DNA from: Octopus vulgaris
Taxonomy: Eukaryota
Length of the DNA stretch: 64,000 bases
Reading direction: 5' to 3'
NCBI GenBank assembly: GCA_951406725.2
Contig: OX597838.1
Span: forward strand, 45,074,001-45,138,000
The notes under the pieces are model-generated. The model did not search any database, was not told the origin of the DNA, and saw only the letters and a program-made list of their open reading frames with translations. Position 1 is the stretch's first letter; each line of letters begins with the position of its first letter. Shown here piece after piece: positions 38,729 to 61,581 of this stretch. The translations under genes were made by a program, and so were the position numbers.

Positions 38729-39750
38729 ATCGTGACGTATTTTTGCCCTTTCAATATGGCTAACCCTTAAGGGTGGATGCTACTGTAGTTTTTAACCCCA
38801 GGAGGACACACTCCTCCAGCTGGCCATAGACACACTATCTGTGTCCTGTCAGTATTTGCAAAGGGAAGTCATCCTTCCCGTCTTCAACTTATGATACACA
38901 CGGACTCGAGTTTCGAGGTATTGACCTCTCGTCAGCGTGTGACAATCATAGTTGTCGCCGAGAATAAGATTTCCTTCACAAATACTTATACTTTTTCCAG
39001 CGTCCACTGTCGCTGTATATAACTCACTTTGATATTTATCATTGTTTGATTTCACTTTTTCAATATCAGCGACAGTGGACGCTGGAAAAAGTATAAGTAT
39101 TTGTGAAAGAAATCTTATTCTCGGCGACAACTATGATTGTCACACGCTGACGAGAGGTCAATACCTCGAAACTCGAGTCCGTGTGTATCATAAGTTGAAG
39201 ACGGGAAGGATGACTTCCCTTTGCAAATACTGACAGGACACAGAAAGTGTGTCTATGGCCAGCTGAAGGAGTGTGTCCTCCTGGGGCTAAAAACTACAGT
39301 AGCATCCACCCTTAAGGGTTAGCCATATTGAAATGGCAAAAATACGTCACGATGTGTTACCGCTACTGTATATAACTCACTTTGATATTTATCATTGTTT
39401 GATTTCACTTTTTCAATATCAGCGACAGTGGACGCTGGAAAAAGTATAAGTATTTGTGAAGGAAATCTTATTCTCGGCGACAACTATGATTGTCACACGC
39501 TGACGAGAGGTCAATACCTCGAAACTCGAGTCCGTGTGTATCATAAGTTGAAGACGGGAAGGATGACTTCCCTTTGCAAATACTGACAGGACACAGATAG
39601 TGTGTCTATGGCCAGCTGGAGGAGTGTGTCCTCCTGGGGCTAAAAACTACAGTAGCATCCACCCTTAAGGGTTAGCCATATTGAAATGGCAAAAATACGT
39701 CACGATGTGTTACCGCTATTGTATATAACTCACTTTGATATTTATCATTG
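38729..39750. mobile_element. Retrozyme-like array A: 353-bp unit, one inverted partial copy + about 2.1 tandem copies
   Basis: Units start at 39014, 39367 and 39720. Inverted arm 38729-39015. One HHR per unit. (TA)n flanks. Confidence 0.9.
39141..39185 (+). ncRNA. Type I hammerhead ribozyme (copies also at 39494-39538 + and 38897-38941 -)
   Basis: CACACG-CTGACGA-GAGG-TCAATA-CCTC-GAAA-CTCGAG-TC-CGTGTG: perfect stems I and II, palindromic stem III, GUC cleavage triplet. Confidence 0.93.
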
Positions 39751-39875
39751 TATGTATATATATATATAGAAATTCGGGGTGAGTACTTGATAATTATAAG
39801 CACCTGTGTAAACCGTTTGGTGGTGTAGGTGGTGGAGTAAATTGATCAAAATAAAAACATGATGCCAAGGATTCA

Positions 39876-39953
39876 GCGGTACATATGTTTCGGGCTTTTA
39901 TTAGACAGATTTATAACAATGCATAATGTATGTCTGTGGCCTTCTTCAGCCGC
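39876..39953 (-). ncRNA. Type I HHR in foldback insertion 39857-40060 (mirror copy 39967-40040 + lacks its stem I 5' strand)
   Basis: GCGG-CTGAAGA-AGGC..GCCC-GAAA-CATATG-TA-CCGC. Confidence 0.8.
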
Positions 39954-40326
39954 GCACAACAGCTTCCTGAAGAAGGCCACAGACATACATTATGCATTGT
40001 TATAAATCTGTCTAATAAAGGCCCGAAACATATGTACCGCTGAATCCTTGGCATCATGTTATATATATATATATATATATATATATATATATATATATAT
40101 GTGTGTGTGTGTGTGTGTGTGTATAGAGATAGATAGATAGATAGATAGATAGATAGATGATAGATAGATGGATAGATAGATAGATAGATAGATAGATACA
40201 TAGATTGATAGATAGATAGATACATAGATAGATAGATAGATAGATAGATAGATAGATAGATAGATAGATAGATAGATAGATAGATAGATAGATAGATAGA
40301 TAGATAAATAGATAGATAGACAGAGA

Positions 40327-41130
40327 TATATGTTTCTTTATTAGCCACAGAGGGCTGCACACAGACAGGACAAATTACAATGTAGAGCTTTTCTTTTGGG
40401 GGTAAAAAAGGGGGTTTGGTTTTCGATCAAAAGGGATGGTAAAAGGAAAGAAAGAGGACAAAAAAAGGGGGGGATTAAAAAAAGAAAAAAAAGGGGAAAG
40501 GAAAAAAAATTGATCAATAGGGATCGTTATCATAGAAATGTCTCTTGCCGAGAGTCGTGGTAGGCTGTGCAGGTAGGCACTGAAGTTCACCCTGCGTTCA
40601 CGCTCGCCACTCGTCCCGTACAGTAGGGCAAAGTTCCGCTGAAACATCTCGCACATCTTGCTGGGCTCGAGCAATTCGCGCCCGTGTTCATCTACCAGAG
40701 ACCGAATGGTGACTTTGTTGCCCTGCTGCGCCTCCACCACCCGGGCCTCCCTCGCGGCTCCAACACCTTCCATCCTTAGGGCACGCATCCTAGCCCTGAC
40801 AGCACACCCTTCGTGTTTGGAGTTGAAGTGTTGGTCAAGGGCCAACCTCGCCGCCAAAACGTCGGATGTGATGCCGCTTCTTATTGCCTCTTCTAACTTC
40901 TTAACTAACTCACCCTCTACTCTATTTCTTTCTACGGCTAGTGCCTTGCTATATCTAATTGCTTCCGCTTTTACTGCTCTCTTGAGGGCGAACCACCATT
41001 TGTTGTTGACAATGGCTCCCGTTAAAGCCCTTTTTACTAACGTGTTGATTCTGTCTCTGAAAACCTGTCTGGATGGGAAAGATGCGTTCAGTTTCCAGTA
41101 ACCAGGACCCTGTCTATATGCCTTATCTAA
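40327..41130 (-). mobile_element. Internally deleted, 5'-truncated Tx1-like LINE, copy 4
   Basis: 3'UTR (40327-40540) fused to the post-APE region (GPGYWKLNAS..., ARLALDQHF, LPRLS). (GATA)n on both sides. Confidence 0.9.
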
Positions 41131-59207: not shown

Positions 59208-59221
59208 ACTATGCAAAACCT

Positions 59222-60112
59222 ATGGCCTCAAAATACCTGATCCACCGGAACTCAGCCATTGCGAGCAATGCCAAATTCAATATTTTGATGGCAGACCTCG
59301 TCAGAATAATGAGAAATGTGTCACGCATGTGCGAGCCTACAGAATTAAAGAGACACATACAGTATTTCATTCACCGCATGCAGTTCTCAGGTTACAGCCA
59401 TAAAGAAAGGATCAGAGTATACAAAGGAGCCATGAAGAAATTTGATAATATATTATGTAATGATAGGAATGGGATTTGCCCACTCTATAGGAACAAGTCA
59501 TGGAACACTATAGAAAGGACAAAAAAGAAAATAAGGAAGGCCAACTCTTGGTATGATAGCCATAAATACCAGAGTGTCATGTTCGTTGACACCACCCCTG
59601 GAGGTGAACTAGCGTACCGCTTTAGAAGGACCCTAGATAAACTTAAACTAAGAATTAAGGTTGTTGAAAAGCCAGGCAACCCTATCAGATCTATAATTGG
59701 TAGAAACTATCCTTTTAGTAGAACTCTCTGTACGGATAACTATTGCACTGTATGTAGATTTAGCCCACAAACGAACTGTAAAGCCAGAAATGTGGTCTAT
59801 AGTATAAGATGTATAGAGGGACGATGCAGTAACAAGACAGTAACATACGTAGGGGAAACTGCAAGAAGCATTGGTGAGCGGGTGAATGAACATTGGAGAC
59901 AACTCAAGGAAGGTAAAAGCTCATCGATTCTGTACCAACACGCCGAACAAGAACACGGGGGATCAATCAATAACATAGAGATTAAGATATTGTCCACACA
60001 TAGAACAGATGCAACAATTAGACAAATTACAGAAGCTACACATATAATAGAAAATAAACCTAGCCTGAATAGAAAACTAGAATGGAGCAATAGCGCACAC
60101 CACAACATATGA
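59222..60112 (+). CDS. Second, more truncated copy of the PLE ORF (RT thumb + GIY-YIG)
   Basis: Matches the left arm except for one residue that I could find (GRTYP vs GRNYP). Confidence 0.88.
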   Translation: MASKYLIHRNSAIASNAKFNILMADLVRIMRNVSRMCEPTELKRHIQYFIHRMQFSGYSHKERIRVYKGAMKKFDNILCNDRNGICPLYRNKSWNTIERTKKKIRKANSWYDSHKYQSVMFVDTTPGGELAYRFRRTLDKLKLRIKVVEKPGNPIRSIIGRNYPFSRTLCTDNYCTVCRFSPQTNCKARNVVYSIRCIEGRCSNKTVTYVGETARSIGERVNEHWRQLKEGKSSSILYQHAEQEHGGSINNIEIKILSTHRTDATIRQITEATHIIENKPSLNRKLEWSNSAHHNI

Positions 60113-60635
60113 CAATAGTGGATCCTGCAAACATAATAAATACACAGGTAATTAAAGAAATAGAAATGAATATCTATATATATGTATATGTGTATATATA
60201 TGTATATGTATATGTGTATATATGTGTGTATATATGTATATATATATATATATGTATATGTATATGTATGTATATATATATATGTATATGTATATTCTTT
60301 TTTTTTTTTTTTTTTTTTATAGATTATATTTATTATTATTATTACTAATATTGTTGTTATACATACATACAAGCATATGTAATGATAATAATGGGTGGAT
60401 GTAAACACATGAATAAAATTAGAACAAAAGCAACAACAACAAAAACAAAATACAAATTACAAGAATGTATATAACCAGAAGATACAAATATTACAGGCAT
60501 CCCCCCCACACACACACTAAATAAACATAGACGCACATAGAGATATAAGCATGCGCAAATGAAGACATACAATAGAAATACAAAATGGCTGACGGTTAGT
60601 AAGGAGAGACACAAGTAAGTGAGAAGAAAACAAAG

Positions 60636-60679
60636 GACCACTGATGCGGTCACAGGAGTGTGACGAAAGAACTTTGGCC
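60636..60679 (+). ncRNA. pLTR HHR motif with A9C core change (copies 57081-57124 -, 26261-26306 -)
   Basis: GACCA-CTGATGC-G-GTCACA-GGAG-TGTGAC-GAAA-GAAC-TT-TGGCC. Confidence 0.65.
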
Positions 60680-61581
60680 GAAATAAGATTAAGATTAATG
60701 TAAAAAATAAATATCACTGAAGCAAAATAACACCAAATATATAGTGCGTGTGTTTTTATTGGCTAAACTGGCAATATGACCATTCCGAAATATAACAATA
60801 TATATATATATATATATATATATATATATATATATATTTGTGTGTTCTATAAACATACATATGTATAAATATATATGTTTGTTTGTGTGTCTATAAACAT
60901 AAATATATGTGTATGTATATATATACATACACATATATGTATGTTTAAAGAAACACAAACAAACATATATATATATATATACACACACACATATATACAT
61001 ACCCACACATACACATATATTTATATATATATATGTATATATATATATATATATATATATATGTAAATATAAATATCAATATATATATATATATACACAC
61101 AAACACACACACACACACACATATATATATATACATACGCACACAGACACACTGGTGCTAAGTTGGTTCATACGATGTGGCTTCCAGTTCGTTTGATCAA
61201 GGGAACGGTGTCCTGTTAAACTGACGTGCAAATGGCTGACCATTCGACAAACTTCCATACCCCCATACCCTTAATATTATAGTTCCCAGGGTGCCACAGC
61301 CGGATAGGATGTGATAAAGCTGGGCCTTTGAAATACTACTGATTTAGTTAGGTAAGTGCTGCACTGGACCAGCATGAAGTAAAATTTCTCGCTCCACACA
61401 ACATCGAACTCACAACCTGATAGTCAGAAGCCCAATTTCCTAACCACTAAGCCAAGCACAGTCAGTATATTTAACTATCTATCTATCTATCTATCTATCT
61501 ATCTATCTATCTATCTATCTATCTATCTATCTATCTATCTATCAGTCTCTCTCTCTCTCTCTCTCTCCATATATATATATA

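Follow-up and report, generated by a model that had tools for sequence, protein, structure and literature searches.

Divergent insertions of Penelope-like elements and retrozyme-like families in Octopus vulgaris pair a short with a long 3' end

We analyzed a 64-kb stretch of the Octopus vulgaris genome (contig OX597838.1 of assembly GCA_951406725.2, positions 45,074,001 to 45,138,000; hereafter the window), which holds eight inverted insertions of Penelope-like elements (PLEs) and of three non-coding families, A, B and C, that carry hammerhead ribozymes (HHRs). In these insertions and in their relatives across the genome, the two arms lie head-to-head with their 5' ends inward, and the outer 3' ends fall at two fixed positions of the unit, one short and one long, which are combined in nearly every two-armed insertion. 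This near-obligatory pairing is common to coding and non-coding families and ties the one-sided tail to the inversion. As the mechanism we favor twin priming, in which a PLE enzyme would use one RNA for both cut ends of the target, with the short site for one end and the long site for the other, and we give this reading a probability of about 0.6.

The genome (2.8 Gb) was searched with each of seven families, namely A, B, C, the coding PLE of the window and the short families S2, S3 and S4. We examined 246 loci, the best-scoring 28-40 of 796-3173 candidates per family, a sample that favors young copies. Locus classes for S2, S3 and S4 were read by eye. Four duplicated loci (L057, L262, L251 and L026) were kept in the geometry counts and excluded from the haplotype counts, and L057 and L262 were also excluded from the flank counts. 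The original prediction, made from the letters of the window, had claimed that all eight inverted structures have a minus left arm and a plus right arm, and it had set a genome-wide count of divergent against convergent pairs as its check. HHR cores and sequence comparison bore out the orientation in 8/8 structures, and in the best-scoring samples all 146 two-armed loci were divergent and 0 convergent. For families A to C, 65/65 two-armed loci were divergent (p = 3e-20 against 50:50, n = 119 loci): 25 beside 15 single-armed loci in A (n = 40), 19 beside 21 in B (n = 40) and 21 beside 18 in C (n = 39). The PLE gave 31 adjacent divergent loci, 4 single and 4 others (n = 39), and three of these four others also have a short-ended inverted arm. 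S4 gave 18 divergent loci, 9 single and 1 complex (n = 28); S2 and S3 gave 16 divergent loci each, among 30 loci each. A near-convergent neighbor at L014, a 37-nt fragment across 36 nt of TA, was scored as a separate insertion.

Every one of the seven families has one short and one long 3' end, 46-103 nt apart. Their positions in the unit are 224 and 270 in A, 229 and 276 in B, and 107 and about 210 in C, and the short-to-long distance is 54 nt in the PLE, 60 in S4, 68 in S2 and 72 in S3. Within each zone the ends shift by a few bases toward AT or TA, most widely in C (199-218). The original prediction had the outer ends at different positions of the unit, which is true and understated, as mapping onto the monomer gives only two zones per family. 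Its proposal that internal sites are picked freely by microhomology did not hold; the match to AT or TA tunes a few bases only. Short and long ends were paired in 140/146 two-armed loci. In families A to C the pairing was found in 61/65 loci, with 1 short and short, 3 other and 0 long and long (p = 1e-17 for 61/62). A short partner was present in 31/31 PLE loci, and short and long ends were paired in 16/18 loci of S4, 16/16 of S2 and 16/16 of S3; the PLE, S2 and S3 loci were selected by their long end, so that pairing in these three families tests only against long and long. Searching for tiny stubs beside loci classed as single added two short and long pairs, one short and short pair and one complex locus. 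Because the short end stands alone in 42/54 single-armed retrozyme loci, we consider the short site to be a priming site.

The 3' ends of A, B, C and the PLE run into (TA)n in 224/245 cases, as the original prediction had said they mostly would. Candidate target duplications were present at 20/151 loci, mostly in TA, and the three at unique-sequence targets measure 12-13 nt. An ATG precedes the short site by 21-26 nt in A, B, the PLE, S2 and S3 and by 33 nt in S4, and C has none. In the PLE this ATG lies 26 nt before the short site and is the start of the open reading frame (ORF). Families A and B have frames of 38 and 30 codons (window 39333-39446 and 44740-44830) that begin 21-22 nt before the short site and resemble each other; from their sequence they are possibly relics of the start of a PLE frame. 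Single-sequence folds in the seven families revealed no common fold around the two end sites.

In the window, short and long ends are paired in 6/8 structures. The features are listed below in window positions (pLTR stands for pseudo-long terminal repeat and RT for reverse transcriptase).

25791..26058: S1, short stub, head-to-head, from the coding PLE family to which S4 also belongs; left arm at the long site, right arm at the short site
26085..26600 (-): single-armed 3' stub of the window PLE family, long end
32256..32545: S2, head-to-head stub from a coding PLE of Hydra type; the left arm has the short end and the right arm the long one (tail of about 68 nt); HHR-like core with U4C
38000..38300 (+): older single-armed 3' stub related to the window PLE (87%), with the short end and an HHR core in which A9 is intact
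38729..39015 (-): left arm of a family A retrozyme (unit of 353 nt), with the short end
39013..39751 (+): right arm of family A, with 2.1 units and the long end (tail of 46 nt); contains two HHR cores of canonical type I
39768..40060: S3, head-to-head stub from a second coding PLE of Hydra type; the left arm has the long end
43737..44371 (-): left arm of a family B retrozyme (unit of 359 nt, related to A), with 1.8 units and the long end
44373..45479 (+): right arm of family B, with 3.1 units and the short end (tail difference 47 nt)
45543..45793: S4, head-to-head PLE stub; left arm short end; HHR-like core with a G3:C8 swap
46513..46797 (-): left arm of a family C retrozyme (unit of 577 nt), with the long end; its start lies 2 nt away from the predicted cut
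46798..47480 (+): right arm of family C, with 1.2 units and the short end; its HHR at 47214-47292 has a long stem II
56905..59201 (-): left arm of the coding PLE, with 5'-truncated RT and GIY-YIG (residues 793-1309), a 3' pLTR whose HHR-like core has A9C and U17, and the long end
59198..60801 (+): right arm of the coding PLE (residues 1005-1309), with a 3' pLTR and the short end (tail difference 54 nt)
38935 (-), 39147 (+), 39500 (+): HHR cores of family A
43994 (-), 44353 (-), 44551 (+), 44910 (+), 45269 (+): HHR cores of family B
47214 (+): HHR core of family C
57119 (-), 60641 (+): HHR cores of the window PLE
32343 (-), 32389 (+): HHR cores of S2

The HHR cores of S3 and S1/S4 were identified by reading the sequence. 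An Rfam scan of the window, with 150 of 211 matches listed, gave Hammerhead_1 for family A at 32.2 bits, just under the 34-bit cut-off, and microRNA models on TA repeats dominated the matches. The boundaries first drawn for three short structures (S1, S2 and S3) had missed the one-sided tail, an extra 60-72 nt in one arm. The first exception to the pairing in the window is S3, whose short arm stops 18 nt shy of the family short site; the second, S4, is taken up below.

The two arms of a locus share a haplotype. At seven subfamily-diagnostic sites, the PLE arms of one locus disagreed in 2/77 comparisons, against 36% between loci, and the discordance within loci was 2.9% in B, 11% in A and 3.1% in C, against 41, 26 and 35% between loci. 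In A, B and C the units inside one arm are as uniform as the arms, and 11 alleles private to a locus occur in every unit of both arms. Apparent variants of terminal units at positions 31-33 of family B were set aside because they are probably artefacts of gap placement, as was position 222 of family A, which derives from the target. PLE arm starts lie no more than 60 nt apart in 5/16 long pairs (permutation mean 1.2, p = 0.002), and S3 arm starts no more than 12 nt apart in 5/15 pairs (p = 0.025, with the ambiguous L185 dropped). In 6/31 PLE loci the short arm begins more than 20 nt further 5' than the long arm, which in turn extends further 3'; neither arm thus contains the other, and a simple self-copy of one cDNA is insufficient. 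Overlap at the central junction could be scored for 56/94 junctions. Added bases were present at 26/56, and the 30 junctions lacking them overlap by at least 1 nt in 25 cases and by at least 2 nt in 14 (null 45% and 16%). At its central junction, the window PLE has an overlap of 4-5 nt.

In the mechanism that we favor, the PLE enzyme would cut both strands of an AT-rich target, and both cut ends would prime reverse transcription on one RNA, one at the short and one at the long site. The trailing enzyme would displace the leading cDNA, and the two cDNA ends would then be joined through overlaps of 1-6 nt or a few added bases. Single-armed copies would arise when one of the two primings failed. 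The outward 3' ends, the TA flanks and the target duplications agree with the earlier claim that both ends of a break prime, and the short microhomology at which the arms meet agrees with the claim that two cDNAs are joined. In L1 twin priming, too, the second target end primes internally, the 5' ends come to lie inward and the central junction has microhomology. The arms of such L1 insertions represent different RNA segments and their second site is variable, whereas here the arms overlap and both sites are fixed. Two primings are supported in vitro for another PLE, Poseidon of Anolis carolinensis, whose enzyme, a predicted dimer, cleaves an AT-rich target on both strands, extends both and starts at two internal sites that bound a tail inside the start of the ORF (PMC11167929). 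The available portion of that paper reports neither coupling of strand to site nor an inverted product, and by motif Poseidon belongs to another PLE clade. For the octopus protein at the intact locus L240, a dimer prediction over residues 8-195 gave 0.24 (mark 0.32).

Several observations weigh against twin priming on a single RNA. The pairing has exceptions with two short ends (L278 and L272), and in the window the right arm of S4 stops 30 nt shy of the family short site and there is no long arm. In S4, 9/9 single-armed loci are long-ended, the opposite of A to C. L364 (G000:C20:23287800-23290100), from the S2 list, is a palindrome of two long ends in which about 100 nt of flanking sequence is mirrored on either side, the mark of DNA fold-back. 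Among locus-private alleles, 33 are confined to part of the units (and 197 to a single unit), and the family B arms of the window are mosaic at three positions. Near-equal starts were not in significant excess in A (2/23) or C (2/21) and were borderline in B (4/19, p = 0.055). The shared haplotype and the near-equal starts are also compatible with a fold-back copy followed by uneven loss at the palindrome center, with two RNAs of one source locus, or with later homogenisation. In vitro, the Anolis start sites show no strand difference and no homology between RNA and target (PMC11167929), and here the ends favor AT and TA. Finally, the chimera L309-L311 consists of a long-ended arm from the window PLE and a short-ended one from family B, which meet head-to-head with a 4-nt overlap, and the far side has no remainder of either element. 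The chimera exists in three copies duplicated with their flanks (G000:C28:8284000-8293900, C28:8355500-8365400 and C2:59067500-59077400). Its union of a long with a short end speaks for the favored mechanism, but it requires two RNAs.

This chimera is what one would expect if twin priming used two RNAs in one complex, with slots fixed to the short and the long site and RNAs that usually come from one source locus. Such a reaction would make strand displacement unnecessary and would leave room for the 2/77 discordant PLE positions. Several haplotypes were active, yet the arms nearly always match, some locus-private alleles run throughout both arms, near-equal starts indicate one RNA end, and the chimera is the sole such event in 54 single-armed loci. 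We therefore hold two RNAs to be quite unlikely as the general route. The original prediction had offered two RNAs or a circular RNA; the circle is plausible for the tandem families, and two RNAs as a rule do not agree with 75/77 diagnostic PLE positions shared within loci, against 36% discordance between them. A broader proposal, to which we give somewhat less than even odds, is that PLE integration is a coupled two-site reaction, in which a single complex would assign the short site of an RNA to one cut strand and the long site of that RNA to the other, roll round circles made by the ribozyme if the RNA is a retrozyme, and be able to load two different RNAs and so fuse a PLE with a retrozyme. 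If this is true, inverted repeat and tail would be aspects of a single phenomenon, and the two-site signal could be read on the retrozymes, which would then be proven cargo of PLEs.

The shared haplotype, together with the excess of near-equal starts in the PLE and S3, would also follow if a cDNA primed at the long site folded back and copied itself, with the endonuclease trimming the newly made strand at the short site and a later, uneven loss of the palindrome center. L364 shows that fold-back at the DNA level occurs, and PMC8557442, in its available sections, ascribes the tail to resolution by the endonuclease. This fold-back route needs an extra step for the 6/31 PLE loci with the further-reaching short arm, and single short-ended insertions indicate priming at the short site. 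The case that was found combines two long ends with mirrored flanks and not a short with a long end, and both sites act as start sites on RNA in vitro (PMC11167929, in the portion available). We consider fold-back unlikely as the source of the paired ends.

In a further published proposal, an antisense transcript primes itself and builds a head-to-head palindrome before integration. It was put forward for the head-to-head excess and for palindromes at junctions (PMC3846280, in the part available), and some junctions here do lie at local palindromes. The two fixed ends and their pairing would be left without a reason, most junctions link distant positions by 1-4 nt or added bases, and a sense template works in vitro (PMC11167929, same portion); we regard self-priming as very improbable here. 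Artefacts of assembly or amplification, to which we give almost no credence, would account for the family B junction of the window, which is unbridged among the short-read contigs listed from four runs. They would not explain family-specific fixed ends, target duplications, arm-specific mutations or later insertions inside arms (L323). In addition, contigs of runs X1 and X2 contain two other head-to-head family B joints, and long ends flanked by TA occur in 3/4 runs. With twin priming on one RNA as the favored reading, we turn to the families that would be its substrates.

Families A, B and C are built of non-coding units in tandem with a type I HHR in every unit, the feature that defines non-LTR retrozymes, and by sequence they are retrozyme-like. 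The canonical HHR core is present in 105/112 matches of A, 48/68 of B and 50/59 of C. A and B are related to each other and differ by two compensatory pairs in stem I of the HHR. Metazoan non-LTR retrozymes (PMC7229834; 10.64898/2026.07.22.740005, both as far as available) likewise form non-coding tandem units of 350-580 nt with one type I HHR each, have less than 50% GC and long target duplications, and have PLEs as their proposed mobilisers. Unit C, with its 577 nt and long stem II, exceeds the 170-400 nt range given in PMC7229834 and falls within the 51-972 nt of the later paper. A pile-up of 5' ends at the predicted ribozyme cut was considered and rejected, as 7/182 ends of A to C lie there and 8.5 are expected. 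The arms of A, B and C reach 6, 5.7 and 9.8 units. Ends that ignore the cut, together with arms of 6-10 units, fit a circle or an uncut multimer, and the template of A, B and C was probably a circular monomer on which copying went round more than once. The three families had no sequence match to the window PLE, nor to 30 of at least 150 listed GIY-YIG loci or 10 longer ones, and neither these loci nor tail peptides led to a parent PLE. The chimera is the only direct link between these retrozymes and a PLE.

The original prediction had cast the window PLE as the autonomous driver of at least six non-coding ribozyme passengers, and neither role was supported. The window copy is truncated (residues 793-1309 and 1005-1309 of a 1309-codon ORF) and has no detectable sequence in common with A, B and C; its part as mobiliser hangs on the one chimera, and the genome has at least four other coding PLE families, including an abundant Neptune-like family with a 781-codon frame. 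An intact 1309-codon frame, a single ORF with RT and C-terminal GIY-YIG, is present at L240 (L240:3951-7877); it has a long asparagine-rich stretch before the RT, comparable to inserts described in rotifer PLEs. RT motifs are invariant across 28 aligned proteins. Pfam gave a weak GIY-YIG match on the window PLE (E = 7e-4, under the cut-off) and no match for the full ORF. The closest named homologue is from Octopus vulgaris at 98%, and 46/48 homologues have no useful name. The window PLE has a partial pLTR tandem, an inverted 5'-truncated copy and a one-sided tail covering the first codons, and its translation reads as a CX2-5CxxC linker and CCHH in the endonuclease, features of the Neptune/Nematis clades. 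The HHR-like core of its pLTR has the fold of a minimal type I HHR with an extra base between 9 and 10.1, but it carries A9C with U17 in 66/67 young copies matched. An older copy at 38140-38174 keeps A9 and C17, unlike the young copies (57085-57119 and 60641-60675). The recent spread of the young subfamily may have had no need of HHR cleavage.

Only three of the supposed passengers are retrozyme families, and S1-S4 are not independent non-coding tandem units; they are stubs of three other coding PLE families. S1 and S4 extend into an endonuclease 46% identical to that of the window PLE (L323). Their HHR-like core (45623-45742 and 25997-26034) has the 3:8 pair swapped to G3:C8 in 16/17 matches, and the accessible part of PMC11167929 describes a 3:8 double mutant with the same swap that partly rescues cleavage. 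Longer copies of S3 and S2 run upstream into Hydra-type RT-endonuclease frames (L318, 835 aa, and L319, 634 aa), whose translations have a CxCx5C linker, no CCHH, and CxxC and CxH near the end, with a (TA)n target. DKT is seen in the S3 parent (L318), and L319 is truncated and lacks the DKT region. By the motif criteria of PMC8557442 section 11, both parents are of the type of the Hydra clade, with which they share these motifs, the HHR and (TA)n targets; the S3 parent differs in that it reads RWA where the clade has RWK. The start of most S2 arms lies 180-205 nt ahead of the long end. The short hairpins, of about 200 nt, may therefore be copies of a message 5' end, and they probably come from the same reaction acting on a coding PLE message at that end.

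The head-to-head geometry is itself already known. For endonuclease-positive PLEs, the available parts of PMC3846280 and PMC8557442 describe an excess of head-to-head inverted 5'-truncated copies, partial tandems, a tail on one inverted pLTR, a pLTR and tail that include the first ORF codons, and a preference for (TA)n. Published target duplications measure 8-10 nt, against 12-13 nt here, and the published tail is 30-40 nt long and called optional, against 46-103 nt and a nearly obligatory pairing here. Our analysis adds the quantitative pairing rule, with counts over seven families and tests of haplotype and containment, and its extension to retrozymes. The structure has been explained by endonuclease resolution (PMC8557442) or antisense self-priming (PMC3846280), and the former names the origin of the tandem and inverted structures as an open problem, in the sections available. 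Hammerheads in PLEs and a circle proposal appear in PMC4209133, and PLEs as candidate mobilisers of retrozymes also in PMC8969392 (available portions of both). So far the enzyme that moves retrozymes in animals has been argued from co-occurrence and from phylogeny, of pLTRs in the retrozyme papers cited above, whose available text has neither inverted arms nor tails; here the PLE footprint lies on the retrozymes themselves. Literature searches found no paper stating the short and long pairing or a PLE footprint on retrozymes, and supplements and PLE reviews of 2005-2006 may bear on the point. The pairing rule gives a sharp prediction for the existing in vitro system, and insertion ends alone could reveal PLE cargo in any genome.

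Smaller observations concern single loci and the rest of the window. About eight short S4 stubs stand in tandem at L136 (G000:C26:25542966-25546091), each followed by TA, apparently through amplification at the DNA level. At L235, oriented positions 6281-7256, 974 nt of unrelated DNA separates two PLE arms, by capture or later insertion. An old remnant related to family C at about 50000-50450, which has an HHR core on the minus strand (50047) and another part on the plus strand, resembles a ninth divergent structure. A minus-strand element at 45860-46380 has an HHR-like core (46134-46088) and a terminal hairpin (46172-46254); a hairpin repeat adjoins it at 46259-46380, with a second copy near 49312-49453. 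A further dispersed family with an HHR-like core is single-armed in the window, at 25452 (+), 33127 (-) and 50702 (+). Truncated RT frames of the long interspersed nuclear element type, unrelated to the finding, lie at 30327-31589, 61660-63729, 1541-6520 and 40375-41148, and Pfam identified RVT_1 in the three tested.

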